DNA of 64,000 nucleotides, taken from positions 80,704 to 144,703 of the forward strand of contig CAYMBN010000002.1 of the NCBI GenBank assembly GCA_964388715.1, written 5' to 3'. The notes beneath the pieces are model-generated. The model was not told the DNA's origin. It searched no databases and worked only from the letters and a program-made list of their open reading frames with translations. Origin of the DNA: an uncultured Methanosarcinales archaeon. GTDB taxonomy: Archaea; Nanobdellota; Nanobdellia; Woesearchaeales; CAYMBN01. A program made the position numbers and the translations under genes. Shown here one piece after another: positions 16,101-61,802 of this stretch (position 1 is its first letter; each line of letters opens with the position of its first letter).

Positions 16101-17084
16101 TTCCTCTATTGCAGGAGTTACTTCTTCCTCTTGCTGTGTTTGGTTAAATATGTTTACTCCTGTTAAGTCTGTTAGTGTTTGGTATTGTAAGAAAGCGTCA
16201 AGTGTTATAAAATAATCATCTGATAAATTGTTTTTGTTGTTTGTTACATTAATTGTTACAATGTGTTCTTTATCTTCTAATCCTGTTGCTATTTCTTTAA
16301 CAACACTATAAACAATGTTTTCAGAGTATAAATCAATGTTTTGACTTACATCATCTACAATAATATTTAAAATACCATAATCATAACGTGTTGCAACAAG
16401 TAAATGAAGATTTGTTCCAGTGAATGTAAAATTAATTTGATCATTTTCAAAGTATGAAGTGATAGCTTTACTGTTACTATATCTTTCATCTTCAACTTCA
16501 ACCCAATCATTAATTATATCTTCTGTTTCTTGGAGTATGACAAGAACATTTTGTGGTTCAGAGATTTCTTCTGGTTCTGTTGTTTCATTTGTTTCTATTG
16601 TTTCATTGACTTCAATTGTTTCATTGATTGAAATTGTCTGGTTTGTTTGGTTTATTGAGGTTGTTTGATTTGTTTGGTTAATTGTGGTTTGGTTAGTCTC
16701 ATTAACTAAGATTGTTTCATTGACTAAGATTGTTTGATTTGTTTGATTAATTGTAGTTTGATTTGTCTCATTAATTGTTTGATTGATTTCAATGGTTTCA
16801 TTTAACTCTATTGTTTGATTAGTTTCATTTGTTATTGTTTGGTTTATTTCTATTGTTTCATTAATTTCAGTTGTTTCGTTGACAGTTGTTTCATTTGTTG
16901 ATTCATTATCATAAACAGCAAGTCCAACTGTGGAAGGATTATTAAATAAGATTATACCTAACATTATAACTGCTATTAATGTTACTATTAAAATCTCAAA
17001 TTCTATTTTGTGGTTGTTTTTGTTTTTAGGCATTTTGGTTTTTATTCTTTGCACGATTGTAAACTGTCCAGATTGTCCTATCAT
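13161..17084 (-). CDS. Secreted or membrane-anchored surface protein (1307 aa) with an N-terminal TM or signal, degenerate N-E-T/N-Q-T sequon repeats, a LamG domain and beta-sandwich modules
   Basis: The hydrophobic segment is IEFEILIVTLIAVIMLGIILF. The repeat region reads (NETIEINQTINETNQT)n. The LamG signature is WHHVAMVLD...AIIDKVRIWNRSLSPTEINQSY. The likelier start is Met18 (MPKNK, ATG at about 17033), which leaves a 4-nt gap to the upstream HTH gene. Confidence 0.65.
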   Translation of the reverse strand: MIGQSGQFTIVQRIKTKMPKNKNNHKIEFEILIVTLIAVIMLGIILFNNPSTVGLAVYDNESTNETTVNETTEINETIEINQTITNETNQTIELNETIEINQTINETNQTTINQTNQTILVNETILVNETNQTTINQTNQTTSINQTNQTISINETIEVNETIETNETTEPEEISEPQNVLVILQETEDIINDWVEVEDERYSNSKAITSYFENDQINFTFTGTNLHLLVATRYDYGILNIIVDDVSQNIDLYSENIVYSVVKEIATGLEDKEHIVTINVTNNKNNLSDDYFITLDAFLQYQTLTDLTGVNIFNQTQQEEEVTPAIEEEEQAVQGYAEINKPVKWTKTIEDSNTTQLPAESFNISARKIIRGLGAADIKQLPFKIRDKGILKETSVFEEKSKNNILKKQNKLLKKFNKPTKKQINPIVITASAIKNVQNKGFWSIVIDGVINFFRKFTVTGHAIIDINTTELIIEDEPAEYNIEYYTEEPIAIETEINPYKKQIFISSDVHYENILAYTNITDTNQEDIKLYHLVNNTKELVTNITYVDQNNNSLIDKIQWIVPHLSNASYEVEITVLNIQSYPTIGKNWTVMFNTTGTANLTIKAINQTTWSNTNETEDLLFLEVRCNNTTLDYNWTNNSVFIEDYSCNQTSYETSKVITTGIHDLQFTFGSQTAEAHNDASSPPTISFNLPTPLNNTLTLNTSVQINITLTNAADLNEFKWNWNGTNYTMYNDSLLLMMNFDNVTDVEAINATYTMSTSGNSYHYEDLTSVSNYVIQSGDYVEYDVLWTSANDDIAFDYTTSDAATLRDSGVFDQNGLNVHPNTDISAYALYQWYHRKIEITGGHVGKTIQNYDVVCEADSAGTYTAYLDNILITDGSGTVRKIIFRNGSFTNSTHLQSSGSIIRFENDSNAPKTTIDNSIYQNNGTVISAVYNLSGKYGSGFDFDGVDDQISVSSTFGIGTGSFTASAWVNLDSASESGAFIKIGNAATGFGLGVGSSSYDNNGNDLILLYETNRWIDTNIVIGTGWHHVAMVLDSNGDPTAFLDGVSVYNDSGQLDGLTPLDNITQIGGYSARQVDAIIDKVRIWNRSLSPTEINQSYMSNLKKYDTDKWEFYSNQTNLTNGTYTYKAFSKDLSNNTNSTGQRTITIGVPMSIDLTISPNSTSASATVYASGRLNLSNSTNVSYNIIYLNTSVNMTWHWFNNTQLYRIPFVVESSTNQNNVHVHITGQNITDADSTVTLNSVTINKIQVVDAKQALASQGLLLTHWFTDLDSDNVFDPTDFITAEFNISANEKKLLYVYLNNT

Positions 17085-19400: not shown

Positions 19401-20486
19401 TTATTTGAATTTACCTAATTTTTGTTCAATAATTTTTTTGTTCCAAGAGCCAAAGTCAAAAACTTCTAACTCTTTCATAAGTGATGTTTCAGTTGGTCTA
19501 TTATATTGTTGATAAGTACATCCTGGTAAACATTCTAATCCTTGTTCTTGTGCCCAAGTAGGACAACTAGCAACATCACAATTAGGATACTTGTTAACAT
19601 TAAATTTAATTTCTCTTTCATATAAATATTCATCAGCTAGTCCTCCTATTGCATGACCTAGTTCGTGCATTAAGACAGAATCTTTGTCAGCAGTGTTTAT
19701 ATGTACAATGTTTGAGATAGCTGTTGATCTTAATGGGTTTGTTAATTCTTGCATTCTATTTCTTTTAACAAGAACAACAATAAAATCATTTGGACATTGA
19801 GCTGCTTCTTTTTTTACTTTAAATTGTTCGCATAAAATATAATCATCAAATGTGCATCCCATGTCAGGGAATTTATCAATTCTATGGAAATTAACTTTAT
19901 CTTTGTTTGATTTGAATGGTTCAATTTCAAAGAATATATCATTTACAAAATGGTTAACATCTTTGATAAAATCACTTAATTTTTTAAATTCTTGACCTAC
20001 AAATACAATGTCTAGTTTCTGATTTTCATCTCCATTGTATAATACTTGACTACATTCACCTTTTTTACTTGCATCACCTATTTCTGTTATTTGTGTTTTA
20101 CCTTTTTTGCTTATTAATCTTAAATCAAGTTTTCCTTGAGGAGTGCTTAAGCATAATGGGTTTTTTTCTTTTTCTACAATAAACTCTGAGACTTTAAATG
20201 ATTGTTTTGCAGGGCTAAGGAAAATATTGTTTTCTTGATCTGGAGTGATTTTTCCTTGTATTGTTACTGGTTGGTTTTTGTCAAAGAAACATACTTCTTT
20301 TAAATTTTCTGGTAAAGTAAAGGATAATTTTTTAACACTATCATAATCTTTTGTTGCAACTGTTTGTATGACATTACTTAGGCTACTAACAAATTTATCA
20401 AGTGACATTGTTACTTCAGAAACTTCTTTAGCGCAGCCACTAATTAGAATTAATACAATAATCAATATCACCATTTTTTTATTCAA
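19401..20486 (-). CDS. Lipoprotein zinc metalloprotease of the HExxH...GLADEY type, resembling peptidase M64 (IgA-peptidase family)
   Basis: It has a lipobox-like signal (LILISGC) and the motif VLMHELGHAIGGLADEY. Confidence 0.5.
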   Translation of the reverse strand: MNKKMVILIIVLILISGCAKEVSEVTMSLDKFVSSLSNVIQTVATKDYDSVKKLSFTLPENLKEVCFFDKNQPVTIQGKITPDQENNIFLSPAKQSFKVSEFIVEKEKNPLCLSTPQGKLDLRLISKKGKTQITEIGDASKKGECSQVLYNGDENQKLDIVFVGQEFKKLSDFIKDVNHFVNDIFFEIEPFKSNKDKVNFHRIDKFPDMGCTFDDYILCEQFKVKKEAAQCPNDFIVVLVKRNRMQELTNPLRSTAISNIVHINTADKDSVLMHELGHAIGGLADEYLYEREIKFNVNKYPNCDVASCPTWAQEQGLECLPGCTYQQYNRPTETSLMKELEVFDFGSWNKKIIEQKLGKFK

Positions 20487-23400
20487 GTTGTTTCACCTAC
20501 ACACATTTCAAAGTCTGAGTCAGGGATTGCAATTGGAGATCCCAATATTGTTAGGTATTTTGGATTTGTGTTGAATAGTGTGTTTATGTTATTTTCAATA
20601 TCTTGTATAACTAATTCAAAATGTTCCCTTGTTTTTAAATTTTTCTCACATATCTTTGTTTGTTGTGTTTGGTCAACATTTGTGAATATTATTATTTCAT
20701 GTTTAGCAGCAGCAAGTATTGGTGCTGATAATGATGTTGATGAATATAGATTCTTAATTGTGCTTGATGTTTTTAATGGAAGGTAATCTTCTTGTATTGT
20801 AAAGCCTATATCTTTTTGGTTGATGAGGATAACTTTATCTGTTCCAGTGATTTCAATTATTTCTTGTTGTAATTGTGTTAAAGAGCTTATGTCTTGACAT
20901 GATGTTGAGGTTTGTGGACATTGTGTGTTTATTGTGATTACATTTTTTTGTGTAAAAATGTTTTCATTGTCTGTGATACTATCTTTGATTACTAATGGTA
21001 TGTTTTTTAATGAAGCATATACAGAAGCTGTCATTGCTAATTCATAGTCAGAGTTAACATAAACAATATCACCAAATGATTCCCAGTAGGTAAAGTAATT
21101 GTTTAGACTTATTTTTTGGATTTTGTCTGTGCTTATTGATGTAGCGCTTGCTAGTAATGTGTCAAAATCTTCAGAACTGTCTTCTATTAATGTGATTCTA
21201 GTAGGATTATAATCATTGATAAAGCTGATAGTGGAATCAAGGTCAATTATGTTTCCATTTTTATGGTAAATTAGGAAAGGATATTTGTTAATTTGATTAT
21301 TTTGTGTCCATATTGTTGCTGATATGAATGTAAATATCTTTTGCCAATTATCATCTGATATTAAAAATAATTCTTTTTCAGTATAAGCTTCTATATTTTT
21401 CATGTTTTCACTAACATTTCCAATAACTTCAATTTCTATTTCTTCTGTTATAACTTCAATGTCTGTGCTGCTTGTATTAGAAAATTGAATATCATCAAAA
21501 TTAAGGAGCATTGTGCCTGGATTGATTGGTTTAAATTTGATTGTTGCTAAGTAACCTGAACCACTAATTATTTCTTCTGTTTGTTGGTCAGCAGTAATTG
21601 AGACTTCTGAGTTTGTTTTTGTTAAAATACTTTTTAATGAACTAATTAAATCTTGTGTTTCAGCTTCATTGATTGTATAATCAAAGTTAAAGTCTTGTAA
21701 GAATCCTGATTTTTCAACTTCTGTTAGGGTTAAGTAATTGGAATCATAATTTATACTAAATTCTAAGTCTGTTAGACTTTTTGCATTTCCAATAAATACT
21801 TTTGCTTCAAATTCTTGGTATAATTCAATATCATCTGGTACTGAAAAGATTAAAGTAGGTCTTTCTTCATCAGGGGCAAATAGGATTGTTTCATTTTCTT
21901 CTGGTTCTTCCTCTTCAACAGGCTCTTCTTCCTCTTCGATTGGTTCTTCCTCTTCTTCCTCTTCTTGAATTTCTGATTCTTGATCTTCTGATACTTCTTG
22001 TGTATTAACAACATGTCCTGCAATACTACTTCCTCCTCCACCGCCTCCGCCACTACTAGTGGTTGTTGGAGTTTCTTCTGTTGGGCATGCTCCACAATCT
22101 GCTTGACATGATGTACATGTTTCAGCGCCATTACAAGTTGAGTCACCACAGTAAGGGACACTTGGTCCACTTGTTGATGCTGATGAAGATGTATCTGTTC
22201 CATCTGAGGCAGTGAATGAATATGTGTGTGCAGCTGCTGTTAGTGTTTGATTATAATAATATCCTTTACCATTTGAGTAAGTTGTGTCAGTTGCATCTAT
22301 TTCAGCCATTGGGTACATTGTACCATCAATTGTAACATTGATTGTGTCAGGAGCTTCATTGTTTGCATCAGTATAAGTAACAGTGTAATTGAAATTTGTA
22401 CTTGTTGTGCCTGAGGTTGGTGAAACACCTGCAGAACTATAGGTAGGAGCACTGTTGACTATTATTGGTAGGTTTGTTGTTGAAGTTGTGGTGATATTAG
22501 TACCATCACTTGCATTAAAATAATAACTGTGTGACCCTACTGTTGATAAGGTTGTGGAATTTGTGGTATAATAATAATTTTTACCATCATTAAACATTGC
22601 ATCACCTGGATCACATTCTGTCATGCTATAGGGATTATCATCAATAACTACTTGGATAGAACCATTGGGACCAATATTATTTGCATCAGTGTATGTTACT
22701 GTGTAATTGAATACAGTATTAATTGGACCTGAAGTTGGTGAGACAGAACCACTTGCTAAGGTTGGTTCAACTTGTCCTACTACTTCTATTCCTACTGCGT
22801 TATCACCCATTGCGACAACACTGTATGTTCCATCAGAAGTACTGAAATTATAACTATGATTACCAATTGCTAATGTTGTATTGTAAAGATAATCTTTACC
22901 ATCAGTATAAGTAGTATCAGTTGGATCTCTTTGAACCATTGCAACTGTGCCTGTTGTATTTATTATAACATTCATAGATGTTGGAGCGTCATCGTCATCA
23001 TCAGTATATGTTGCAGTAAAAACATATGATGTGAATTGATTTCCACTAGTTGGTTGGACATTACCAGTATTTACATTAGGACTACCTACATTATCTGTTA
23101 CTTCTGGTTGCGAACCACATGATGCTGGTGGAGCTGGCCATGATCCAGATGCATAAGGTTGGTCATAAGGAAATGAATCAATTGCAACCCATGTGTCACT
23201 ATCTTGAGCACCTCCTCCTGTAAAATAAGGACAAGCTGCATGTCCCCAGTAATTACCTTGACTTCCATTTGAAATGTTTACTCCCCTAACATTTCCTCCT
23301 GCTTGTTCTGTACGTATTTGGAGAGTATTTCCATAGATGTTGTTATGGTAAATTTGTATATCTCTAATAGATTGTCCTATACCCATACCATATGTACAAC

Positions 23401-24310
23401 TGGTTATATTATTGTAATAAATATTACCACTATGGGAATCATATTCATTAAAAACTATACCTGAACCGTCCCAGCTAAATGTTGCTTCGCCGTCTGGGTC
23501 AGGTGCGCAATTAAATATTGTATTATCTTTTACAGTAATATTTATTACTTCTTGTAGTTCTATTCCTCTTATAGAATTCCATATTACATTATTTGAGATT
23601 ATAGAATCATTTATTTCATAAATTTCAATTGCAGAGTCTGTTGTACTATCTGAAAGAGTGTTATTTTCTATATGTACACTATCTAAAGGACCATCAAGAT
23701 CTATAAGAGGATTACCTGGACCTGTAAATGTGTTATTTCTTATAACTATATCCTTATTATCTAAACCATAACCTGCTTCAGTAATCATAAGACCATTGCT
23801 ACAGTTAACAAATGAATTATTTTGGATTAATAAATTTGTTATTCCAGTTGCATAAACTGATCTAAAACCAGCAGCATTACCACCATTAACATTACAACCC
23901 TGAATAGTTATGTTTGTTAATAATTGAGTAAATGAATTTTCATAGATTCGTATTACGTCTCCACCAGAAGGACCAGCATTACTTATTGTATTTCCTTTAC
24001 AATCTAGTGTAACATCACTGGAATTAATAAAAATACAATAGGCAGAATTCATAGTTATTCCAGTACTTAAATTATAAATTCCTGGTGTAGTGATTTCAGT
24101 ATCACATGCAGTTATCTCTGTTTCAGCTATGCCAACAGCCATTCCTGTTATTTTTGGTGTTGTAGTTATTGCAGTATAAAACATAGTAGATAATAAGAGG
24201 ACTGCGATAGTTGCAATTATGTTATGTTCTAATTTAATGATATGTGCTCTATCTAAATGATGTTTTCTTTTTCTCATTCCCTTTTTTGATTTAATGCTTT
24301 TTCTTTGCAT
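20483..24310 (-). CDS. Membrane-anchored adhesin-like protein (1275 aa) with an N-terminal signal-anchor, right-handed parallel beta-helix (PbH1/pectin-lyase-fold) repeats, four Ig/PKD-like repeats, an acidic Glu-rich linker and a C-terminal domain
   Basis: Beta-helix repeat motifs (IRNNTFTG, IENNTLSD, ISNNVIWN, KDNTIFN) are present. A repeated roughly 95-aa unit reads P.SG..FNYTVTYTDANN..P..I.V.ID...Y.M...D..D..Y..GK.Y.Y...L....H.Y.F.ASDG. The linker is G7SS followed by EEEEEEEPIEEEEEPVEEEEPEE. Confidence 0.6.
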   Translation of the reverse strand: MQRKSIKSKKGMRKRKHHLDRAHIIKLEHNIIATIAVLLLSTMFYTAITTTPKITGMAVGIAETEITACDTEITTPGIYNLSTGITMNSAYCIFINSSDVTLDCKGNTISNAGPSGGDVIRIYENSFTQLLTNITIQGCNVNGGNAAGFRSVYATGITNLLIQNNSFVNCSNGLMITEAGYGLDNKDIVIRNNTFTGPGNPLIDLDGPLDSVHIENNTLSDSTTDSAIEIYEINDSIISNNVIWNSIRGIELQEVINITVKDNTIFNCAPDPDGEATFSWDGSGIVFNEYDSHSGNIYYNNITSCTYGMGIGQSIRDIQIYHNNIYGNTLQIRTEQAGGNVRGVNISNGSQGNYWGHAACPYFTGGGAQDSDTWVAIDSFPYDQPYASGSWPAPPASCGSQPEVTDNVGSPNVNTGNVQPTSGNQFTSYVFTATYTDDDDDAPTSMNVIINTTGTVAMVQRDPTDTTYTDGKDYLYNTTLAIGNHSYNFSTSDGTYSVVAMGDNAVGIEVVGQVEPTLASGSVSPTSGPINTVFNYTVTYTDANNIGPNGSIQVVIDDNPYSMTECDPGDAMFNDGKNYYYTTNSTTLSTVGSHSYYFNASDGTNITTTSTTNLPIIVNSAPTYSSAGVSPTSGTTSTNFNYTVTYTDANNEAPDTINVTIDGTMYPMAEIDATDTTYSNGKGYYYNQTLTAAAHTYSFTASDGTDTSSSASTSGPSVPYCGDSTCNGAETCTSCQADCGACPTEETPTTTSSGGGGGGGSSIAGHVVNTQEVSEDQESEIQEEEEEEEPIEEEEEPVEEEEPEENETILFAPDEERPTLIFSVPDDIELYQEFEAKVFIGNAKSLTDLEFSINYDSNYLTLTEVEKSGFLQDFNFDYTINEAETQDLISSLKSILTKTNSEVSITADQQTEEIISGSGYLATIKFKPINPGTMLLNFDDIQFSNTSSTDIEVITEEIEIEVIGNVSENMKNIEAYTEKELFLISDDNWQKIFTFISATIWTQNNQINKYPFLIYHKNGNIIDLDSTISFINDYNPTRITLIEDSSEDFDTLLASATSISTDKIQKISLNNYFTYWESFGDIVYVNSDYELAMTASVYASLKNIPLVIKDSITDNENIFTQKNVITINTQCPQTSTSCQDISSLTQLQQEIIEITGTDKVILINQKDIGFTIQEDYLPLKTSSTIKNLYSSTSLSAPILAAAKHEIIIFTNVDQTQQTKICEKNLKTREHFELVIQDIENNINTLFNTNPKYLTILGSPIAIPDSDFEMCVGETT

Positions 24311-27300
24311 TTTTTCTTATTTTTTTATTGTGTTTTTTATGTTTCCTTTTCTTGTTTCTTTTTTTTGGTTTTTTTTGAAAAGTTTTTAACTTTTCTAAAC
24401 CTTTCTTTGAAAGTTTCTTTTTTGTTTTGTGTTTATGTTTCTTTTTTTTGGAAACTTTGGTTTTTTGAGAATGTTTTTTGTGTTTGTTTTTCTTCTGTTT
24501 TTTTGATTTCTTCTTCTTCTTTTTCTTGGTTGTTTTTCCTTTGGATAATTCTATTGTTAGGTAAGTTAAAACTATGATTGATGTGATAATTAAAGTCCAG
24601 ATAGAAGGTTTTTCAGGTGAAGTAAAAACACTTAGTAACATTGCTTCTAGATCAAGTTTTTCAAATTCTTCTTCCTCTTCTTCTAGAGTTTCTTCTTCTA
24701 TTTCTTCTTCAGGAAGAGCTGTTTGATTTTCTTCAGCTTCTTTTTCAATAATTTTTGTTGTGGCAATTGCAAAATAACTGAATCCAGGAGTTGTTGCTTT
24801 GTATATGGTATAATTATTGTTTTCAGAAATTATTTTTGTAGGAAGATTATTCCATTTACTGTTTTTGTATCTTTTTAATACAATGTCTGTTTTATTTACT
24901 TTATTTTTTTCTAGCCATTCTTTTGAAACTTTGAATTGAATTTCTGCATTTTCTATTACACCATCTACTAAATTTTTGGTTCTACTTACTTGGGCATATT
25001 TGTAAACAAGAGTTTTTATTTTTCTACGTGTTTCAGGTGCTTGTGTTAACTCTATAACACTGATTTGTACATTTTTTAATTTATTCTTGGTTGTAGCTTC
25101 TAATTTTGTGATTGGAATTTCTTCTTTGTCAGGGGACATTTCTAATGTGTCACTAGCTTTGATTGACGTCCAAAGTTGAGTTGACTTTTCTCCTTTAATT
25201 GTTGGTTCTTCTATGACAAAACCATCTCCGCTGCTTGATGAACTTGATGATGATGTTGATGTTGAAGTTGATGTACTTCCTGCAACATCTGTTGTGTAAT
25301 TTGTTGAGTTTGAGTATGTCATTACGTTACTATTTTTATCAGAACATCTTACAAATAAGGTTCCTGTGTTGTCTGTTGTGAAGCTGAAATTAGTAGTATG
25401 GCTAAGGGTTCCTGTTGTTGAAAATGCTGTCATATTACCATAATATAGGTTTGAAGTGTTATAAGCGCAATTTGCATGTTCATTTGTTGTTACATTTAAT
25501 ATTAATATGACTGTTGATGTGCCTGTTCCTGATGCTGTGTAATTTAGATCTGTTATTATTGGGATTGTTCCATCTTTGATTGAAAAGTTTCTTGGAGAAC
25601 TAATAGAGCTTCTTTGGTTTTGATCAGTACAATTTAATGTGTAGTTATAAGTTCCGTTGAGGAGATCACTGTAGTTATGCATGTGTGTATAACGTACCCC
25701 TACATTAGTAAAGTTTGTTGTATTTATTGTTCCTGATTGAACATTGCCTGTTGCGTTTGTTATATTATATCTGCAGAAGGTTGTGTTTGGATTTGCTTCC
25801 CATACATCTGCAGAAACTTGAACGAAACTATCTGCTGATTGGTTTGTATTATTTGTTGGTCCTGTTATGTTTATTGTTGGTGCAACTGTATCATTTGCTA
25901 AGCCTGCTCCTGATAAATGCGGTACGTAAGTTGTTACATTTAATGAACCGTTTGTGTAACATGCTGCTGTTATATTGCCAACAGTGCTTGGAGCTGTGTT
26001 GCCTGTACATTGAGCTAACTTGTAAACATTGTGACCAAGGTCATCGTCTACATACATTACTTCAAAGTCTTTTAATGTTTCGTTAAATACAATTGTTGTT
26101 GTATTATAATAAGTATCATTTAGGAAACTGCTCATGTTTTGGAATAAAACTAATTTTGTGAAGTTTGTTCCTGATTTGTTTTTGCTTAAGTTTGCTGGTA
26201 GAGAATGTTTACTTACAACAATTGTAAAGTCTGTTCTGTTCCAGTTTGCTAACGATGAGTTGAAGCTTGGCATTGTTACAGAATAGTTGTCTGTTGTTGA
26301 TGCGTTAACTTCAAATTCCATACTTACTGAATTATTCATCCAAGCAACACCACTTAGTTCTGTACCTGATGAGTTTTTGATAGAAACGTTTACAACTCCT
26401 GTATTTCCTGTTTCAATTGAGTTAGCTCTTTCTGTTATGTTTTCTTGTCCTATTACTCTAAATGTTCTTGATACTTGGGTTGCTAAGTTACTTGCTTCAT
26501 CTTTTACATTAAATACTACTGTGTGTGTTCCTCCACTAATATTATAAATTGTAATGTTAGTTGCATTTGCTGTTGTGGTAAGTACCCATTGACCAGAGTC
26601 TACTGAGAAGTTTGATAAAGAAATGTTTGCTTCTGTTACACTATAATTAAATGTTACATTTCCATTTGCATTTGTTATTATTTGATTGTTTGTTGGAAGT
26701 GTTACATTAATTATTGGAGCATCATCATCTATTGTGAAAGTGATTCCTGGACTTGTTATTGATGTGGTATTAGTGTTGTTTGCAGTGTCAACAACTGTTA
26801 TATTAAGCACTTGATCTGAGCCTAGAGTAATTGTTCCATTCCAGGTAGAGTTAATAGATTTATTTAATGTTGTTCCTTCTACAACTACTGTGGTTATACT
26901 TGTTTTTAGGTCTGTTGCATTTACTGTTGCTATAACTGCAGTTGATGTTTGTACATAACGGTCTGAGATAGTAAAATTAAAGATTGGAGGAGTGTTTTCA
27001 ATTATAAATGTATAATTAGTACTATTGAATGCACTGTTTCCTGCATTATCATAAGCAAGACAGTTCCAGATAAAAGTACCATTTTTCAGTATGTCTAATG
27101 TTCGGTTTGTTGAGTTGCTTGTACCTGTTATGGTTGCAGTATAGTTTAGTGCCCATGATCCTGTTGAGTTTGTGTAAAAGCTTACATTAGTCAAGTTTTT
27201 ATTATCAGTGAGACTACAATTTAAGTTTACAGAATAATTTGAAGTATTATAATTGTTTACAGGGCTTGTTAGTCTTACTATTGGTGCTGTTTGATCTACG

Positions 27301-30300
27301 TCAACAGTAATGTTGTAAGTTGTACTTGCTCCTATGTTTCCTGCATTATCAGAACAGTTAACAGACCAGTTGTAATCTGCATTAGCTAATGATTGAATAA
27401 AGGTTAAATTAGCTATTGATTTATTAATGCTGCTGTTGGTTTGATTAACTGAATTATTAATTATTAAACTGCAATTGTCAATATTTAAACCATCTGTTAC
27501 ATTGTAGAAGAATTTTATGTTTCTGTTTGAAGTATTTTTGGTGTTGTTTGTAGGTCTTATTAAAGTAACTGTTGGTGCTGTGGTTTCAACAGTCAATGTG
27601 TAATTACTACTGCTCCAGTTTCCTTCACTATTTTGGTCATAAGCAAGACAACCCCATTTGTATGTGCCAACTGTTAGTGCACTTATTGTGATATTGGTTG
27701 AGTTACTGGTACCTGTTACATTTCCAGTGGCATTTAATAACCATGACCCTGTTGTGTTGGTGTAGAAACTTATGTTAGTTAAGTTAGTATTATCGGTTGA
27801 AGTACAGTTAAATGAAATAGATGTTTGAGATGTGTTGTAGTTGTTAACAGGACTTGTTAGATTTACTGTTGGTGGAGTGTTTGTTACATTAACAGTAAGA
27901 TTGTATATATCACTGTTATCTACATTACCAGCAAAGTCTGTACAATTGACAGACCAGTTATGTATTCCATTTGGAAGAGTTTGACTAAATGGAATACTAC
28001 TTACTGCTTTGTTGATTGTAGTATTAGTTACATTTATTGTTTTGTTTAAAATTAAAGTACAATTTTTTATACTTGATAATGCGTCTGTTACATTGAAATA
28101 AAAGTTAATGCTTTGACTAGTGGTATTAAGTGTATTGTTTGGAGGTGTTACTAGAGTTACTGTTGGGTTTGCTCTGTCAAATGTTATTGTTTTATTTGAA
28201 TTGTTCCATGCACTGTTTGAATTACTATCAACGCACAGAACATTCCAAATAAATCTTCCTTGTGGGAGGTTATTAAGTGTTATGTTTGTTAAAGCACTTT
28301 TTGTAGGGCTACTAACTGTTTTGTTTAGTTGCCAAGTACCTGTGAAATTAGTATATAAACTACAATTACTTACTGTTCCATCATCTGTTACAGTTAAATT
28401 AAATTCAAGAGAAGTTACTGTTGTGTTGAAATTATTTTCAGGATAGTTAAGTACTACAACTGGTGATGAAACAGGATATATTTGTTCTGTTGACCATGTA
28501 CTTGCTTTTAGGCTAGAGTCAATTGTTTGAACTGCCCAATAATATGTTTGGTTACTTATATTCAATAAAATGTTTGTGTTGTTTAGCATGTTACCAAACA
28601 TACCTTGTGGTGGGGAGTTGCTTGTGCCATATTCACCACTGACAATATTATTTGCACCTGAGGAATTTCCCACTCTTAGGTTATAATATAATGTTCCGCC
28701 TTGTGTATCAGAAGCGCCTGACCATGATAAGTTAAGTCCTGTGGTATGGTTGCTGCTAAATGTGATTGGTGCATTAGGAATATTATTGTCTGATGTTATT
28801 GGATTAATATAAATTGTTGAATTATCACGAACTTGGTCTCCAACTAAAATTAAATCAAGATTATTATCTCCATCTAGGTCTGTTAATAATCCTGATCCTT
28901 TTTGTACTGTACCACTTGAGCCTGAAGTTGGTAAAATTTTTCCTGATATATTATCTTGGATAAATCTTGAACCTGTGTTGTTGTAAAGAAGTACACTATC
29001 AGCAGTAGTGCCCCCTGGTACAAGTACTAAATCAACTTTACCATTATTATTATAATCTCCTGGATAGATTGCAAGTTCTCCAGTTGCTGTGAGGTCTGTT
29101 ATCCAACTAGAATTATAATAGAAACTTGTTTTGTTGTTAAAGTATATATCTAATCCATAACTTCCACTGAATTGTCCTGAAACAGCTAAGTCCATCCAAC
29201 CATCATTATTAAAATCAGCTACTGCTGAGAATGGGTGTGTGTTACCTGATTGGTATAATCTTAAACCAAATGAATAAGTTGTGTTAAGTTTGAATTCTGT
29301 TTTATTATTTGTATAAACTTGGGCTGTAGTAGTAGTTATTATAACTAGGTCAAGGTAGTCATCATTGTTAATATCAATCAAATGGGCTGTACCATCTGTG
29401 GTTCTTGTTAAATTATTTTGCCATGGAAGACTTTCACTAAAGGTTGTTCCATTGTTTGTGTAAACTTTTGATGAACTATTACTATTATTTTCTTGTCCTA
29501 TTATTACTAAGTCAATGTCACCATCAAGGTCAATGTCTCCTTGTACAATTGCTGCGTCTTTTACTTGTGTTATATTTTCTTGCCAAGTAAAGTTTTCTTT
29601 GAATGTTGTTCCATTGTTTATGTATATTTTTGTACTTGAACCTCTACCATCATCACCTGCAATAATTATATCTGTATCATTATCATTATCAAAATCTCCT
29701 AATGCAATAGAAGGTGTAGTAACATTGGTTATATTTTCGTTCCATGTTGTGTTTTTATTGAATGTATTACCATTACTTGCATATACATTAGCAAGTGGAG
29801 CAGTTCCATTGTCTCCTAGAATTATGAGGTCAAAGTTTCCATCTTTTAAAAAGTCTCCAACTGCAATTGCAGGTGTTTGTACACCAAGTAAGTTAGCATG
29901 CCATGATGCATTTGTTGAAAAAGCTTCTATGATGCTTGATGAAAGATTTAAGAAACTAATGTTGTTAGAACCATTACAAGTTACATTAATGCCAGCATAG
30001 AATGTACCTGTACTTGAATCGCTTACATTTAATTTGAATGTTGTTTTAGAGTAAGGACTAACACCTTGGATAGATGATACATTTGTTGTTAAATTATCTA
30101 AACTGTGATAATTAGTTAAAGTGATAGTCATATTGTCACTTGATGCTTGGCTGTTGATTATATCAATATAATAATTACCTGTTGTGTTAACTCCAACATA
30201 ACCATGGAAAGTAGAATCATTAAATCTTCCTGAGCCTCTTGAAGTGCTTAATGATAAACTTATCCCTGCTGTTATTGATGTTGATCTTATTGGTAAATAA

Positions 30301-33300
30301 TCTATAAATTCTTCTCCACCTCCACCACCTACACTTTCTTCAGATGAATTGTAAATATTATCACAAATTCCGTTAGCATTTGCATCATAACAACCTTCAA
30401 TTGGTGTATCTTTAGCAGTCCATCTGTTACCATAATTAGAATTGTTAAAAGTGAGGTTGTTTGCATTTTGTGTTCCTGTAAATGAACCAGAACTAACAAA
30501 AGTGTTTCCTGTGAATACAGTGCCATTGGATACTCCGTCTGGACCCATGTTAAAGTTAAAATCTATTTGACTTCCTGAGTTATCTACATTGTTGAATGTG
30601 TTATTATAAAAGAAGTTGTCATGTGAACCATCAAATCGAACTCCTCTTACTTGATTTTTGCTTATATTTGAATGGTTAAATGTGTTGTTATGAGATCTTA
30701 ATAGATAAATTCCTTGGTCAGTGTTATTGATTATGGTTAGGTTGCTCAAGAAGCTTAGGTTTGTACCATTTAGGTAAACACCTATTGTAAAGTTTGAGAT
30801 TGTACAATTTTCAATTGTGATATTTTTTCTTCCACTTATATTGATACCATAAAAATATCCGCCACTACTTGAACTAGTACCATTACCTGTTAAATTATAT
30901 CCTTGGCAGTCTAATCTTATGTTATCAGCTGAGATATGGAAACATGTTGAAGCGTTTGTAACATTTTGTGTTAATTTATAATTTCCACCTGCTGTGTTTA
31001 AATTTTGACAATTATTGATGTTAGTACTAGTATCAAATTCATAGGTTTGTTCTGCTGACCATGCACTTCTTTTTAAACTAGAATCAATTGTTTGGACAGC
31101 CCAATAATATGTTCTATCACTTTGATTTAATAGAACTTGGGTATTGTTATGCATGTTACCATACATACCTTGTGAAGGGGAGTTACCTGTTCCATATTCA
31201 CTAGATATAATATCATTTCCACCTGAAGCTGTTCCTACTCTAATATTATAATATAGTGTTCCTCCTTGTGTATCAGAAGCACCTGACCATGATAAGTTAA
31301 GTCCTGTAGTGACATTATAATTAAATACAGAAGGTGCTGTTGGTGCATTATTGCTGGATATTCTGTTATTAGTATAAACTTTTGAAACTGCTCCAGAATC
31401 ATCTCCAGCTATGATTAAATCAAGATCATTATTACCATTAATATCAACAAGTAATGGTGATCCTTTTTGTATTCCCATTCCACCTACACCAGTATTGCTT
31501 GGCAAAAATTTTGCATATGTTGTGTCAGAAGTGAAAACCTTTCCAGTGTTATTGTATACAAGAACACTTTCCCCAGTATTACCTGAAGATACAAGTATTA
31601 AATCAATTTTACCATCATTATTATAATCTCCAGGATAGATTGCTACTTCTCCACTTGTTGAGAAACCTGTTACCCAACTTGAATTATAATAAAAACTTGT
31701 TTTGTTATTAAAATATACATCTAATCCAAAGCTTCCGCTAACTTGTCCTGATACTACAATATCCATCCATCCATCATTGTTAAAGTCAGCTGATGCCATA
31801 TATGGATGATCATTACCTGATTGATAAAATCTTAAACCATTTGAGTAGGTTGTGTTAAATAAGAATGCTGTTTTGTTGTTTGTGTAAACTTGTGTTATTG
31901 TTGTTGTTATTATAACCAGGTCAAGGTAATCATCATTGTTAATGTCAATTAATTGGGCAGTACCATCTGAAGATCTTGTTAAGTTTTCTTCCCATGAAGA
32001 GTTTTCATTAAAGGTTGTTCCATTGTTTATGTAAACTTTGGATGAATCATTGCTATTGTTTTCTTGCCCTATTATTACTAAGTCAACATCACCGTCTAGG
32101 TCAATGTCACCTTGTACAATTGCTGCATTTTGTACTGGTGTGATATTTTGTTGCCATGATAAATTTTCATTAAAGCTTGTTCCATTGTTTATGTATATTC
32201 TTGTGCTTGCACTACTAGTATTGAAACCAGCAATAATCATGTCTGTATCATTGTCATTGTCAAAGTCTGCTAGTGCAATGCTTGGGGTAGAAACATTGAT
32301 TAGGTTTTGGCTCCATGTTGTATTTTTGTTTAATGTTGTTCCATCACTTGTATAAATATTCATAAGAGGATTACTACTACCATCATCTCCAACAATAATT
32401 ACATCAGGATTTCCATCTTTTAGGAAGTCAGCAGATCCAATTGCAGGTGTTTCTGCAGCAACTAAATTAGTTTGCCAGGTTGAACTTGCAGCGAAAGCTT
32501 CAATAACACTTGTTGAAAGATTTAAGAAACTAATGTTGTTAGAGCCATTACAAGTGGCATTAATACCTACAAAATATGTGCCATTGGTTGAGTCACTTAC
32601 ATTTAATTTAAATGTTATTCTTGAATAAGCACCAACATTCATAAATCCTGTTTGGTTTGCTGTTAAAGTGTTTAAACTATTGTAGTTTGTTAAAGTGATA
32701 GTTACATTGTCAGTTGATGCTTGGTTGTGAATTACATCAATATCATAAGTACCATTATCATTAATTGCAACATAACCATGGAAATTAGTATCATTATATT
32801 GTCCTGTTCCATTAGATGTACTTAAGGATACTGTTATTCCTGCTGCAATTGACTGTGATCTTATTGGAAGATAATCAATAAATTCACTGTCTCCACCTCC
32901 ACCACCTCCGCTTGCAACAGTGGAATTGTAAATCTCATCACAGATTCCATCAACATTTGTATCATAACAAGTTTCAGCAGGAGTGTCTTTAGCAGTCCAT
33001 CTATTACCATAATTAGAATTATTAAAGGAAGCATTATTTGCGTTTTGCATACCATTAAAGCCAGTTGCATCAGTAAAAATGTTACCTGTAAATACAGTAC
33101 CATTTGATTTACCACTTGAACCCATATTAAAGTTTATATCAATTTGATTTCCATTATTGCCATTGTAAAATGTATTATTGTAAAAGAAATTATAATGTGC
33201 TCCATCAAAGTAAACTCCTCTTGCTGAATTATAACTTATATTTGAATGATTGAATGTGTTGTTGTTTGATCTTAATAAATAAATTCCTTGGTCAGTGTTG

Positions 33301-33686
33301 TTAAATATAGTTAAGTTACTAAAGAAACTTAGATTTGTATCATTTAAGTAAATTCCTCTTGTGTAATTGGTTATTGTACAATTTCTAACAGTAATATTTT
33401 TTCTTTTGGTAATGTTGATACCATAGAAATATCCTTGATTGCTTGTGCTAGTACCATTGCCTGTCATAGTATATCCTTGACAATCTAGAATAATATTGTC
33501 TGCTCTAATATCAATACATGTTGCACTACTGTTTACATTTTGTGTTAAAGCATAGCTTCCACCTGATGTGCTTAGATTTGTACATGCATTTATATTGATA
33601 GCATAAGCAAATGAATTATAAAGTAGGAAGACAAAAATTAAAATAATCAAACTCTTCAAATTTGTTTGAATTTTGTTTTTAACCAT
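24291..33686 (-). CDS. Giant surface protein (3131 aa) with signal peptide, two copies of a beta-helix (NosD/PbH1-like) + FG-GAP/VCBS propeller + FN3-like unit, Ig-like repeats, a Ser/Thr stretch, a PGF-like motif, a C-terminal TM helix and a roughly 90-aa Lys/His-rich tail
   Basis: The beta-helix N-terminus (ININACTNLSTSGGSYALTQNV...CIDIRADNIILDCQGYTMTG) is duplicated as STNINNCQNLNTAGGNYKLTQNV.... FG-GAP motifs (DFDNDNDTDMIIAG, DIDLDGDVDLVII) are present. The C-terminus reads TTPGFSYFAIATT ... SIWTLIITSIIVLTYLTIELS followed by K-rich sequence. Confidence 0.65.
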   Translation of the reverse strand: MVKNKIQTNLKSLIILIFVFLLYNSFAYAININACTNLSTSGGSYALTQNVNSSATCIDIRADNIILDCQGYTMTGNGTSTSNQGYFYGINITKRKNITVRNCTITNYTRGIYLNDTNLSFFSNLTIFNNTDQGIYLLRSNNNTFNHSNISYNSARGVYFDGAHYNFFYNNTFYNGNNGNQIDINFNMGSSGKSNGTVFTGNIFTDATGFNGMQNANNASFNNSNYGNRWTAKDTPAETCYDTNVDGICDEIYNSTVASGGGGGGDSEFIDYLPIRSQSIAAGITVSLSTSNGTGQYNDTNFHGYVAINDNGTYDIDVIHNQASTDNVTITLTNYNSLNTLTANQTGFMNVGAYSRITFKLNVSDSTNGTYFVGINATCNGSNNISFLNLSTSVIEAFAASSTWQTNLVAAETPAIGSADFLKDGNPDVIIVGDDGSSNPLMNIYTSDGTTLNKNTTWSQNLINVSTPSIALADFDNDNDTDMIIAGFNTSSASTRIYINNGTSFNENLSWQQNITPVQNAAIVQGDIDLDGDVDLVIIGQENNSNDSSKVYINNGTTFNENSSWEENLTRSSDGTAQLIDINNDDYLDLVIITTTITQVYTNNKTAFLFNTTYSNGLRFYQSGNDHPYMASADFNNDGWMDIVVSGQVSGSFGLDVYFNNKTSFYYNSSWVTGFSTSGEVAIYPGDYNNDGKIDLILVSSGNTGESVLVYNNTGKVFTSDTTYAKFLPSNTGVGGMGIQKGSPLLVDINGNNDLDLIIAGDDSGAVSKVYTNNRISSNNAPTAPSVFNYNVTTGLNLSWSGASDTQGGTLYYNIRVGTASGGNDIISSEYGTGNSPSQGMYGNMHNNTQVLLNQSDRTYYWAVQTIDSSLKRSAWSAEQTYEFDTSTNINNCQNLNTAGGNYKLTQNVTNASTCFHISADNIRLDCQGYNLTGNGTSSSSGGYFYGINISGRKNITIENCTISNFTIGVYLNGTNLSFLSNLTIINNTDQGIYLLRSHNNTFNHSNISKNQVRGVRFDGSHDNFFYNNTFNNVDNSGSQIDFNFNMGPDGVSNGTVFTGNTFVSSGSFTGTQNANNLTFNNSNYGNRWTAKDTPIEGCYDANANGICDNIYNSSEESVGGGGGEEFIDYLPIRSTSITAGISLSLSTSRGSGRFNDSTFHGYVGVNTTGNYYIDIINSQASSDNMTITLTNYHSLDNLTTNVSSIQGVSPYSKTTFKLNVSDSSTGTFYAGINVTCNGSNNISFLNLSSSIIEAFSTNASWHANLLGVQTPAIAVGDFLKDGNFDLIILGDNGTAPLANVYASNGNTFNKNTTWNENITNVTTPSIALGDFDNDNDTDIIIAGDDGRGSSTKIYINNGTTFKENFTWQENITQVKDAAIVQGDIDLDGDIDLVIIGQENNSNSSSKVYTNNGTTFSESLPWQNNLTRTTDGTAHLIDINNDDYLDLVIITTTTAQVYTNNKTEFKLNTTYSFGLRLYQSGNTHPFSAVADFNNDGWMDLAVSGQFSGSYGLDIYFNNKTSFYYNSSWITDLTATGELAIYPGDYNNNGKVDLVLVPGGTTADSVLLYNNTGSRFIQDNISGKILPTSGSSGTVQKGSGLLTDLDGDNNLDLILVGDQVRDNSTIYINPITSDNNIPNAPITFSSNHTTGLNLSWSGASDTQGGTLYYNLRVGNSSGANNIVSGEYGTSNSPPQGMFGNMLNNTNILLNISNQTYYWAVQTIDSSLKASTWSTEQIYPVSSPVVVLNYPENNFNTTVTSLEFNLTVTDDGTVSNCSLYTNFTGTWQLNKTVSSPTKSALTNITLNNLPQGRFIWNVLCVDSNSNSAWNNSNKTITFDRANPTVTLVTPPNNTLNTTSQSINFYFNVTDALSSIKNCTLILNKTINVTNTTINKAVSSIPFSQTLPNGIHNWSVNCTDFAGNVDNSDIYNLTVNVTNTPPTVNLTSPVNNYNTSQTSISFNCTSTDNTNLTNISFYTNTTGSWLLNATGNVTGTSNSTNITISALTVGTYKWGCLAYDQNSEGNWSSSNYTLTVETTAPTVTLIRPTNNTKNTSNRNIKFFYNVTDGLNIDNCSLIINNSVNQTNSSINKSIANLTFIQSLANADYNWSVNCSDNAGNIGASTTYNITVDVDQTAPIVRLTSPVNNYNTSNYSVNLNCSLTDNKNLTNVSFYTNSTGSWALNYTATITGTSNSTNRTLDILKNGTFIWNCLAYDNAGNSAFNSTNYTFIIENTPPIFNFTISDRYVQTSTAVIATVNATDLKTSITTVVVEGTTLNKSINSTWNGTITLGSDQVLNITVVDTANNTNTTSITSPGITFTIDDDAPIINVTLPTNNQIITNANGNVTFNYSVTEANISLSNFSVDSGQWVLTTTANATNITIYNISGGTHTVVFNVKDEASNLATQVSRTFRVIGQENITERANSIETGNTGVVNVSIKNSSGTELSGVAWMNNSVSMEFEVNASTTDNYSVTMPSFNSSLANWNRTDFTIVVSKHSLPANLSKNKSGTNFTKLVLFQNMSSFLNDTYYNTTTIVFNETLKDFEVMYVDDDLGHNVYKLAQCTGNTAPSTVGNITAACYTNGSLNVTTYVPHLSGAGLANDTVAPTINITGPTNNTNQSADSFVQVSADVWEANPNTTFCRYNITNATGNVQSGTINTTNFTNVGVRYTHMHNYSDLLNGTYNYTLNCTDQNQRSSISSPRNFSIKDGTIPIITDLNYTASGTGTSTVILILNVTTNEHANCAYNTSNLYYGNMTAFSTTGTLSHTTNFSFTTDNTGTLFVRCSDKNSNVMTYSNSTNYTTDVAGSTSTSTSTSSSSSSSSGDGFVIEEPTIKGEKSTQLWTSIKASDTLEMSPDKEEIPITKLEATTKNKLKNVQISVIELTQAPETRRKIKTLVYKYAQVSRTKNLVDGVIENAEIQFKVSKEWLEKNKVNKTDIVLKRYKNSKWNNLPTKIISENNNYTIYKATTPGFSYFAIATTKIIEKEAEENQTALPEEEIEEETLEEEEEEFEKLDLEAMLLSVFTSPEKPSIWTLIITSIIVLTYLTIELSKGKTTKKKKKKKSKKQKKNKHKKHSQKTKVSKKKKHKHKTKKKLSKKGLEKLKTFQKKPKKRNKKRKHKKHNKKIRKNAKKKH

Positions 33687-34099: not shown

Positions 34100-34264
34100 A
34101 GGGAGTGCAGGGATTTTCGTTGTTTTTTTGTATCTCGAACCCTGGAATAGTCGGGATCTGTATTTCATTGGCATGAGCCTCATCATCCCAAAAACTATTG
34201 CAGCCGACCGCCATAACTTTGAAAAAAATTAACTTTTTCAATTTAGCCGCTTGGCCACACTCCC
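34100..34264 (-). tRNA. tRNA-Cys (GCA) carrying three putative introns: D-loop, canonical 37/38 (about 41 nt) and T-loop (about 20 nt)
   Basis: On the minus strand: acceptor GGGAGUG/CACUCCC; U8 G9; D-stem GCCA/UGGC; anticodon stem GUCGG/CCGAC; loop CU-GCA-A; T-stem CAGGG/CCCUG; T-loop UUCGAGA. The discriminator is U73, the tRNA-Cys identity element. The D-loop insertion forms the hairpin uugaaaaa/uuuuucaa. The plus-strand ORF 34047..34232 is spurious. Confidence 0.7.
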
Positions 34265-56198: not shown

Positions 56199-56337
56199 AA
56201 AATAAAGGTGTTTTTTAGACTTTATAAACCTAACCTATCTTATCTTATTCACTACTCCGGAATAGTCCTAAAACCGAAAGGTTTATATAGTAGTTATGCC
56301 TCTAGAATAGTAACAAGGAAGTTGGTGATATATCATT

Positions 56338-56460
56338 GTTATCTAAACACCTCTTTTCCCTAGCAATCCTCTTTAGGGGATTGCCTGGGTTTTTATGTTC
56401 ATGCTATCACCTCTTTTTCCCTGGCAAAAGGCTTCGGCTTTTTGCTGGGGTTTATAATTA
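56338..56460 (+). promoter_or_regulatory. Two tandem paralogous hairpin elements, each with a CACCTCTTTTCC lead-in, a 9-12 bp stem-loop and a T-run. They may be small RNAs or tandem terminators.
   Basis: The first is cacctcttttccc-tagcaatcc-tcttta-ggggattgcctggg-ttttt. The second is cacctctttttccc-tggcaaaaggc-ttcg-gctttttgctgggg-ttt. Both are more GC-rich than the surrounding DNA. Confidence 0.35.
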
Positions 56461-56776
56461 CAAAATTTGACCGAAAAAGATATAAATAAGGTAGAAATAT
56501 CATAATTAATGCCCGTTACGAGAGTACCCAAGGGAACTTACGGCAAAGCCAAGTTATGAACTTGGGAGTTAGTATTACGGGCAACAAATTCATAATCAAA
56601 AATAATAGAACAAGATCATCATTATCATTAAATCACTTGAATAAAAAAAGATTTAAGATACAGAAATAAGTGTAAAATCTTGTTCTACAAAAATAAACTA
56701 GAGAAAGGTAAATCACATGTTCATTATTCATGATTCATTGAAGGAACTTTTTCTAGTTAAACGGAGGTAGAGAAAA

Positions 56777-61455: not shown

Positions 61456-61631
61456 CTTTTGTCAAAATGCTCGGGAAAAATCCTCGCATTTCCTCCAGAT
61501 TAGTATTTCCTTGGTGGAAAGATAATCTTTCTAAAATTAATAAATAGGTGCTACTTTATAAATCTTTTTTATTTTTGAACTATTCTAAAACATTAAGTTT
61601 ATAAATAAAAAGTGAAATTAATGTATTAGAA

Positions 61632-61789
61632 GGACCCGTAGCCTAGTCTGGCAATCTTTTTGGCAAACAAAAAGTTTGGGCAAATAAGGCGACAGCCTTC
61701 TACGATCTTTCGAGGATAGCTGTAGATCGAGGGTTCGAATTTGCTAAAAGGTTCATTGCCTTTTTGTAATGAAAGTCCCTCCGGGTCCG
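61632..61789 (+). tRNA. tRNA-Arg (TCT) carrying three putative introns: D-loop (about 30 nt), canonical 37/38 (15 nt) and T-loop (36 nt)
   Basis: Acceptor GGACCCG/CGGGUCC with discriminator G; U8 A9; D-stem GCCU/AGGC; anticodon stem ACAGC/GCUGU; loop CU-UCU-A with intron CGAUCUUUCGAGGAU; T-stem GAGGG/CCCUC; T-loop UUCGAAU. A TATA (tttataaata) lies about 25 nt upstream and a T-run follows. Confidence 0.75.
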
Positions 61790-61802
61790 TTTCTTTTTAG
61801 AA

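Follow-up and report, generated by a model that had tools for sequence, protein, structure and literature searches.

A tRNA-Arg(UCU) gene, very probably functional, with three BHB introns in a Woesearchaeota (DPANN) archaeon

A locus that reads as tRNA-Arg(UCU) once three insertions are removed from it, and that standard tools pass over, raises the question of whether it is a working gene whose transcript is spliced or the remains of one. The locus lies in the window, the 64-kb stretch of DNA analysed here as a whole, where three inserts separate four collinear exons over 158 nt (61632-61789, plus strand). ARAGORN reports zero tRNAs in these 64 kb with default settings and likewise zero in intron mode (-i), its relaxed thresholds yield noise only, and Rfam gives no tRNA match at gathering thresholds across the whole window and nothing at E <= 10 on the tRNA-Arg locus. 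After in-silico excision of the three inserts, ARAGORN folds a perfect 75-nt tRNA-Arg(tct) cloverleaf with intact acceptor (7 bp), D (4 bp), anticodon (5 bp) and T (5 bp) stems, a result that bears out the excision proposed in the preliminary description of this DNA. The locus is very probably a functional Woesearchaeota (DPANN) tRNA-Arg(UCU) gene with three BHB introns spliced by the endonuclease EndA, a reading in which we infer from the sequence that the gene is transcribed and its transcript cut and ligated, and in what order.

The surroundings of the gene place the host. The neighbouring genes of the window, which has a GC content of ~31%, are archaeal (Top6A/B, LonB, DnaG, RIO kinase, Elp3, TYW1, NurA/HerA), and the best 80 relatives of its Top6B among species-representative genomes, at 65-76% identity, carry almost without exception the labels Candidatus Woesearchaeota, Nanoarchaeia or Nanoarchaeota, so that the window is assigned to the DPANN. 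An identical Top6B is encoded on the JGI metagenome contig Ga0117914_1001061. Many binchicken MAGs titled 'uncultured Methanosarcinales archaeon' (e.g. L002, L003, L006, L007 and L016) encode a Top6B 70-76% identical to that of the window and carry interrupted tRNAs of the Woesearchaeota type, and their 'Methanosarcinales' title looks like a placeholder or a wrong taxonomy.

In the tRNA-Arg gene, the acceptor stem pairs GGACCCG (61632-61638) with CGGGTCC (61782-61788) and is followed by the discriminator G at 61789, the anticodon loop reads CU-UCU-A and the T-loop UUCGAAU, and CCA is not encoded at the 3' end; the parts of the gene and their coordinates are collected in Table 1. All elements attributed to the 158-nt gene in the preliminary description, from the acceptor and the loops to the hairpin of the D-loop insert (CUUUUUG at 61656-61662, CAAAAAG at 61668-61674), are found where it had placed them. 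The length of 36 nt given there for the T-loop insert stands as well, but its boundary does not, since the BHB register puts the insert at 61740-61775 and not at 61741-61776, which leaves the mature sequence unchanged. TATA-like matches centred -26 to -30 from the mature 5' end, counted when at least 7/8 positions fit the (A/C)TTTATAAAT type, precede 26 of the 38 Arg orthologs described below. The T-rich tract that follows the gene is likely an archaeal termination signal, and a run of at least four T occurs inside the 20 nt 3' of the gene in 18/38 orthologs.

Table 1. Features of the interrupted tRNA-Arg and tRNA-Cys genes, with coordinates in the window
Feature	Position	Strand	Basis
Archaeal TATA-box-like element TTTATAAATA, ~28 nt 5' of the mature end	61598..61607	+	read from sequence
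Exon 1 (GGACCCGTAGCCTAGTCTGG): acceptor 5' strand, U8 A9, D-stem 5' strand, D-loop to G19	61632..61651	+	aligns with intronless orthologs
Intron 1, 32 nt, between G19/A20 in the D-loop (19/20)	61652..61683	+	BHB scan, shuffles, homologous introns, covariation
Exon 2 (ATAAGGCGACAGCCTTCTA): A20-A37; D-loop remainder, D-stem 3' strand, anticodon-stem 5' strand, anticodon UCU	61684..61702	+	
Intron 2, 15 nt, canonical position 37/38	61703..61717	+	BHB scan, shuffle control
Exon 3 (AGCTGTAGATCGAGGGTTCGAA): A38-A59; anticodon-stem 3' strand, variable loop, T-stem 5' strand, T-loop UUCGAA	61718..61739	+	
Intron 3, 36 nt, T-loop 59/60	61740..61775	+	BHB scan, shuffles, covariation, L016 homology
Exon 4 (TCCCTCCGGGTCCG): U60, T-stem 3' strand, acceptor 3' strand, discriminator G73	61776..61789	+	
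T-rich tract TTTCTTTTT, directly 3' of tRNA-Arg	61790..61798	+	read from sequence
tRNA-Cys(GCA), three BHB introns	34100-34264	-	BHB scan, ortholog comparison
tRNA-Cys intron, 30 nt, 22/23	34242-34213	-	
tRNA-Cys intron, 42 nt, 37/38	34197-34156	-	
tRNA-Cys intron, 20 nt, 59/60	34133-34114	-	

The inserts were scanned for the BHB motif, defined as a central helix of 4 bp with a 3-nt bulge at either end, one on each strand, flanked by an outer and an inner helix, and such a 3-4-3 motif stands at exactly the required boundary of each of the three inserts. In intron 1, the central helix is GUCU/GGGC with the bulges GG|C and AA|A, and the 2-bp flanking helices on either side lead into an A/U-rich 7-bp hairpin, CUUUUUG-GCAAA-CAAAAAG; this D-loop motif is a weak one, with G-U at two of the four central pairs and with flanks of just 2 bp. 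Intron 2 has the central helix CUUC/GAGG and the bulges UA|C and AU|A, its outer helix being the 5-bp anticodon stem, and intron 3 forms a strict hBHBh' motif with the helix UUCG/UGAA, the bulges AA|U and AG|U, the 5-bp T-stem as outer helix and an inner helix of 4 bp, plus a 7-bp hairpin. The flanking helices thus measure 2/2, 5/2 and 5/4 bp for introns 1, 2 and 3. The same construction recurs in each arm: the exon gives the outer stem, two bulge nucleotides and, from its loop, the four nucleotides of the 5' central-helix strand, to which the 3' end of the intron is complementary; sites 37/38 and 59/60 are equivalent, both lying between nucleotides 6 and 7 of a 7-nt loop.

When the exons were held fixed and the intron letters shuffled 200,000 times per insert, the observed BHB quality was reached by 784, 150 and 170 shuffles for introns 1 to 3 (0.39%, 0.075% and 0.085%), which corresponds to a joint chance of ~2.5e-9 if the three are independent. 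The exact position of the motifs at the boundaries and their rarity among shuffles argue that they did not arise by chance. The minimum free energy of the precursor is -61.2 kcal/mol (z = -5.2), in a fold that keeps the four cloverleaf stems intact and lets the intron hairpins protrude from the loops, and a sterically consistent conformer in which the three BHBs coexist lies at -49.6 kcal/mol, 11.6 above this minimum. The nearest-neighbour energy model, which penalises the very 3-nt bulges bound by EndA, disfavours the BHB conformer, and this modelled preference is a caveat for the splicing reading.

Set against the established classes, the inserts possess the two 3-nt bulges and the 4-bp helix that define archaeal BHB introns, and their excision restores the cloverleaf with junctions identical to those of intronless orthologs. 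With three BHB introns between collinear exons, the gene belongs among the multiple-intron archaeal tRNA genes. None of the three introns falls into the relaxed-BHB class (HBh', hBH, BHL), and the collinearity of all four exons within 158 nt separates the gene from split or permuted tRNAs. The core of a group I or II ribozyme comprises hundreds of nucleotides; at 15-36 nt and with no Rfam match at E <= 10, the inserts are not introns of that class.

Relatives provide a comparison. A search seeded with the acceptor stem and T-arm near top6 recovers tRNA-Arg(TCT) in 37 other loci from Woesearchaeota MAGs, and across the 38 genes, that of the window included, four have no intron, 17 have one, nine have two and eight have three. 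The inserts are found at 37/38 in 19 genes, at 19/20 in 16 and at 59/60 in 15, with nine elsewhere, and exactly the three sites of the window are occupied in six other species (L010, L016, L045, L056, L065 and L076). The lineage-wide intron pattern envisaged in the preliminary description holds in so far as the sites recur in related Woesearchaeota MAGs, but it is not a fixed one, the number of introns ranging from zero to three over the 38 genes. Nearly every ortholog intron has a BHB at the boundary that the exon alignment independently predicts. Splicing by the BHB rule alone produces 74-nt products in 34/38 genes and an Arg(tct) call by ARAGORN in 35/38, the three failures being off-by-one choices of the automatic BHB picker. 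Intronless Arg orthologs read ...CCTGGATA..., ...CTTCTAAGCTG... and ...GGTTCGAATCC... over the three junctions, as predicted. Some ortholog introns are weaker or relaxed, with 3/4 central-helix pairs or an inner helix below 2 bp, the larger introns of relatives bear nested extra hairpins, and the interrupted architecture persists in species diverged to 65-76% Top6B identity.

Across 33 spliced Arg orthologs, the cloverleaf is 99.0% paired, 15 of its 21 pairs have changed on both sides, and 0/500 shuffles reach any of five cloverleaf measures; this pairing, together with the compensatory changes, indicates that tRNA constraint acts on the exons irrespective of the number of introns in the gene. 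Helices between exon and intron covary as well, being paired in 91.7% of cells at the T site, against 75.2% in shuffles, and in 92.1% at the D site, against 83.4% in shuffles and no more than 42% with the partner slid, percentages that are somewhat inflated because for each ortholog BHB core the best motif in a range of +/-4 nt was chosen. T-loop position 57 and its intron partner form A-U in seven cases, G-C in five and G-U in one. The D-loop intron of the window has clear homologues in L016 (z = 13.7) and L043 (z = 11.6), both of which have an extra internal hairpin by comparison, and its T-loop intron is homologous to that of L016 (z = 4.3). Such homology between introns at the same site points to vertical inheritance of the Arg introns.

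If the gene works as its sequence suggests, transcription from its own TATA-box promoter would yield a precursor of ~158 nt with one BHB intron per cloverleaf loop, EndA would cut each 3-nt bulge between its second and third nucleotides, an RNA ligase would join the four exons, and CCA would be added after ligation, resulting in a 75-nt tRNA plus CCA. In other archaea the joining ligase is RtcB, for which the window holds no gene. EndA is absent from the window according to a Pfam search of its 30 ORFs, and tblastn with the EndA of M. jannaschii, a seed verified against PDB 1A79 (E = 8e-111), finds none in 81 loci. Database proteins annotated as tRNA-intron lyase do match, from Candidatus Woesearchaeota P0096 (211 aa) and from Nanoarchaeota archaeon (170-206 aa), and all matches with a Woesearchaeota or Nanoarchaeota label are single units with N- and C-terminal EndA domains. 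They are collinear with the alpha4 enzyme of M. jannaschii, with Tyr115, His125 and Lys156 invariant and with VDEEGE, VDDEGD or VDNEGD at the acidic L10, where M. jannaschii has VDADGD. The DPANN sequences differ from that of M. jannaschii by N-terminal Lys-rich extensions only; they have no internal insert relative to it, and the L3 loop that Kaneta et al. describe was not recognised in the alignment. No accession of any EndA hit matches the 80 Top6B MAGs, and three contigs that encode EndA (L082, L085 and L088) also carry tRNAs with 59/60 introns. In two Nanoarchaeota contigs, endA lies directly upstream of the Lon protease gene (L083:10001-12501 and L084:10001-12506); in the window, tRNA-Arg adjoins lonB on its downstream side, and L001 shows a gene other than endA upstream of lonB.

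Conservation of the acidic L10 in (alpha-beta)2 enzymes is confined to the structural subunit and does not extend to the catalytic one (PMC2761253), so that the presence of the triad and the acidic L10 in one chain marks the EndA of the clade as alpha4-like and not subfunctionalised. Going by the sequences of these relatives, the host's own EndA being encoded outside the window, the enzyme of the Woesearchaeota clade is most likely a single-unit EndA of the alpha4 type, which would then be the likeliest enzyme for the tRNA-Arg precursor and would suffice for it, since none of the three Arg introns departs from the 3-4-3 BHB.

The preliminary description had instead supposed a heterotetrameric or epsilon2 enzyme with relaxed BHB specificity, and the corresponding alternative, that a broad-specificity EndA of the (alpha-beta)2 or three-unit epsilon2 kind is needed to excise the Arg introns, has to be weighed first. 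Non-canonical and multiple introns correlate with (alpha-beta)2 and epsilon2 enzymes (PMC3239211, PMC4033280), the related N. equitans has an (alpha-beta)2 enzyme (PMC2761253), some ortholog introns are relaxed as described above, and a diverged beta subunit could escape the searches. The clade-labelled matches, however, are single units of 170-211 aa that unite triad and acidic L10, none of the clade endA genes has an EndA-like gene beside it, and among the EndA matches there is no protein of ~395 aa, the size of an epsilon2 enzyme, with a Woesearchaeota or Nanoarchaeota label. An alpha4-type enzyme moreover occurs together with increased tRNA disruption in several DPANN lineages (Kaneta et al. 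2018, PMC5829648). Nor is relaxed specificity needed for this substrate, as both 3-nt bulges and the 4-bp central helix are present in all three Arg introns, which would require only that the BHB be recognised independently of its position. A dependence on a broad-specificity enzyme thus appears unlikely, and the guess at a heterotetramer or epsilon2 enzyme is not upheld by the relatives of the host.

Much less probable still is that three insertions have turned the locus into a tRNA pseudogene with incidental BHB-like pairing, its function being served by a continuous tRNA-Arg(UCU) elsewhere. The silence of the standard tools would fit such a gene, and a continuous paralogue is possible in the genome outside the window; an exact scan of JGI metagenome contigs gave 0 matches to the uninterrupted mature Arg(UCU), but the interrupted control form also gave 0, so that the source contig evidently lies outside the JGI collection and the negative scan carries no weight. 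A pseudogene would not be expected to combine exons that fold into a flawless cloverleaf, compensatory exon changes over 33 orthologs regardless of intron content, a conserved promoter, adherence to the BHB rule at three sites with the joint chance given above (if independent), and the same interrupted architecture in species as diverged as these Top6B identities imply. That the inserts are self-splicing introns, mobile-element remnants or assembly errors and not EndA substrates is scarcely probable, despite the group I introns described from Woesearchaeota rRNA and tRNA contexts (PMC6125680) and the nested hairpins in larger introns of relatives, given that the inserts are far too small for a group I or II ribozyme and match nothing in Rfam, that an independently assembled contig, L001, bears the identical Arg gene sequence, that homologous introns exist in other MAGs, and that the Arg and Cys introns of the window lack convincing mutual similarity (z <= 3), so that transposition between the two genes was rejected and there is no evidence of a recent event.

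The window contains a second interrupted tRNA gene, and the claim that a tRNA-Cys with three introns lies 27 kb from tRNA-Arg proves correct, all three being BHB introns. Splicing of tRNA-Cys(GCA) (34101-34264, minus strand) in the BHB register restores a D-arm and a T-loop identical to those of intronless orthologs, and the spliced sequence ...GGCUAAGGCG... and the T-loop UUCGAGU match these orthologs at the two places where the earlier parse differs. That Arg and Cys are interrupted at the same three positions is true for 37/38 and 59/60 but not for the D-arm, where the intron sits at 19/20 in Arg and at 22/23 in Cys. Introns are lacking from about half of the Cys orthologs. In many relatives tRNA-Cys(GCA) directly follows tRNA-Arg(TCT) on its 3' side near top6A/B (L010, L016, L035, L045, L051, L054, L055, L063 and L064), whereas the two genes are 27 kb apart and on opposite strands in the window, which points to a rearrangement.

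Further tRNAs of the clade have introns at 59/60, namely Lys(TTT) in L025, Trp(CCA) in L082, Met(CAT) in L085 and Arg(TCT) in L088. The occurrence of 59/60 introns in Arg, Cys, Lys, Trp and Met tRNAs identifies the T-loop site as a lineage-wide hot spot across isoacceptors. Two of these introns are long, with 141 nt in tRNA-Trp(CCA) (L082:2758-2970, plus strand) and 131 nt in tRNA-Met(CAT) (L085:18660-18862, minus strand), and ARAGORN misses both genes.

The 37/38 intron of tRNA-Cys (34156-34197, minus strand) contains the C-box-like GGGAUGAUGAGGCU and a 3' ...ACAGAU. The Cys introns of L006, L010, L016 and L064 likewise contain a motif of the form RUGAUGA-GCU, then AUGA and a (C)UGA-like box, flanked by complementary GGG/CCC or CGGU/ACCG, and the Rfam model of a Pyrococcus C/D-box RNA matches the Cys 37/38 intron weakly (E = 2, 14 bits). 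A C/D-box element is contained in the euryarchaeal pre-tRNA-Trp intron, and by analogy the Cys 37/38 intron may encode a C/D-box or k-turn element. Another short element, the 11-mer TTCGCTTCGCT, forms the hairpin loop at L016:3576-3586, L056:9015-9025 and L057:9310-9320 with stems that differ between loci; the copy in L016 is nested within the enlarged D-loop intron, the other copies adjoin tRNA genes, and the window has none. This hairpin could be a small mobile element.

Elsewhere in the window, four very large ORFs on the minus strand (4151-12925, 13161-17084, 20483-24310 and 24291-33686) encode 2924, 1307, 1275 and 3131 aa and take up ~40% of the sequence. Giant surface proteins are typical of DPANN genomes, and by analogy the four ORFs are presumed to encode such proteins. 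Beyond the left edge of the window lie ~5.6 kb of coding DNA. The gap of 578 nt between the RIO kinase and DnaG genes (56199-56776), in which a hidden tRNA was considered and rejected, holds two tandem units on the plus strand (56348-56445 and 56511-56585) of the form CACCUCUUUU(U)CCC-hairpin-GGG(G)UUU(UU), followed by a long imperfect hairpin (UGCCCGUUACG...CGGGCAA). These units have no Rfam match and no convincing ORF and may be small RNAs or terminators.

The literature already contains archaeal tRNAs with three introns, introns at 59/60 and disrupted DPANN tRNAs, and the Arg gene is a further example of this kind. A broader proposition is that a plain, non-subfunctionalised alpha4 EndA, lacking the specificity loops of crenarchaeal and ARMAN enzymes, routinely processes up to three non-canonical introns per tRNA in Woesearchaeota, some of them relaxed; this is conceivable, although the odds as we judge them are somewhat against it. 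If it were true, the architecture of the endonuclease would not be what lets tRNA introns spread. Introns would instead settle wherever a cloverleaf stem and six loop nucleotides form half a BHB, that is, between nucleotides 6 and 7 of the anticodon and T loops and at 19/20 in the D-loop, and the tRNA sets of DPANN MAGs would be systematically under-called. Both tRNA genes of the window are invisible to ARAGORN and Rfam, and 'missing' DPANN tRNAs may therefore be annotation artefacts and not signs of host dependence. The 38 orthologs with their three recurrent sites, combined with an alpha4-like EndA, lend site-level support to the published suggestion that links alpha4 enzymes to tRNA disruption in DPANN, and they weaken the simple rule that EndA architecture dictates intron positions. 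Neither the point about annotation nor that about the EndA rule is new in kind.

Among known systems, archaeal tRNA genes that bear as many as three BHB introns have been established chiefly in the Thermoproteales (PMC4033280, PMC8450103), and three is also the known maximum per archaeal tRNA (PMC3239211, PMC8450103). Like the gene of the window, the multi-intron genes of Thermoproteales have at most three BHB introns, at non-canonical sites as well as 37/38 (Sugahara et al. 2008, as reported in PMC4033280 and PMC8450103), and are missed by ordinary tRNA finders. Their hosts, however, are hyperthermophilic crenarchaea with an (alpha-beta)2 EndA that has a Crenarchaea-specific loop, whereas the window comes from a low-GC (~31%) DPANN host in whose Woesearchaeota clade EndA is alpha4-like, and intron transposition between tRNA species, reported for Thermoproteales, has left no sign between the Arg and Cys genes of the window. 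Nanoarchaeum equitans, of a related lineage (Nanoarchaeota sensu GTDB), also has BHB-type junctions processed by EndA, but these belong to trans-spliced halves encoded at separate loci and not to four collinear exons in 158 nt.

ARMAN-2 (Ca. Micrarchaeum), likewise a DPANN archaeon, shares the 59/60 T-loop site, including in tRNA-Cys, and the need for special searches; its pre-tRNA-Cys(GCA) with a 59/60 intron is cleaved in vitro, and its pre-tRNA-Pro(GGG) has introns at 53/54 and 59/60 (Fujishima et al. 2011, PMC3239211). The Cys intron of ARMAN-2 is of the relaxed hBH form and its EndA a three-unit epsilon2 enzyme, in contrast to the two bulges present in the window and the single-unit EndA of the clade. 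The D-loop and 37/38 introns are also combined in one precursor in M. kandleri pre-tRNA-Glu(UUC), whose D-loop intron has a relaxed HBh' motif and is poorly processed by a loop-less (alpha-beta)2 enzyme (Kaneta et al. 2018, PMC5829648), while the D-loop intron of the window has a 3-4-3 BHB with G-U pairs and is accompanied by a third intron. The survey of DPANN by the same authors (Kaneta et al. 2018, PMC5829648) includes Woesearchaeota archaeon RBG_13_36_6, describes an alpha4-type EndA alongside markedly more disrupted tRNA genes, and takes incomplete DPANN tRNA sets to imply that disrupted genes are still undetected. That survey treats the matter at summary level and with one Woesearchaeota genome, whereas the locus described here is a concrete three-intron gene, set among 37 orthologs with site-level data.
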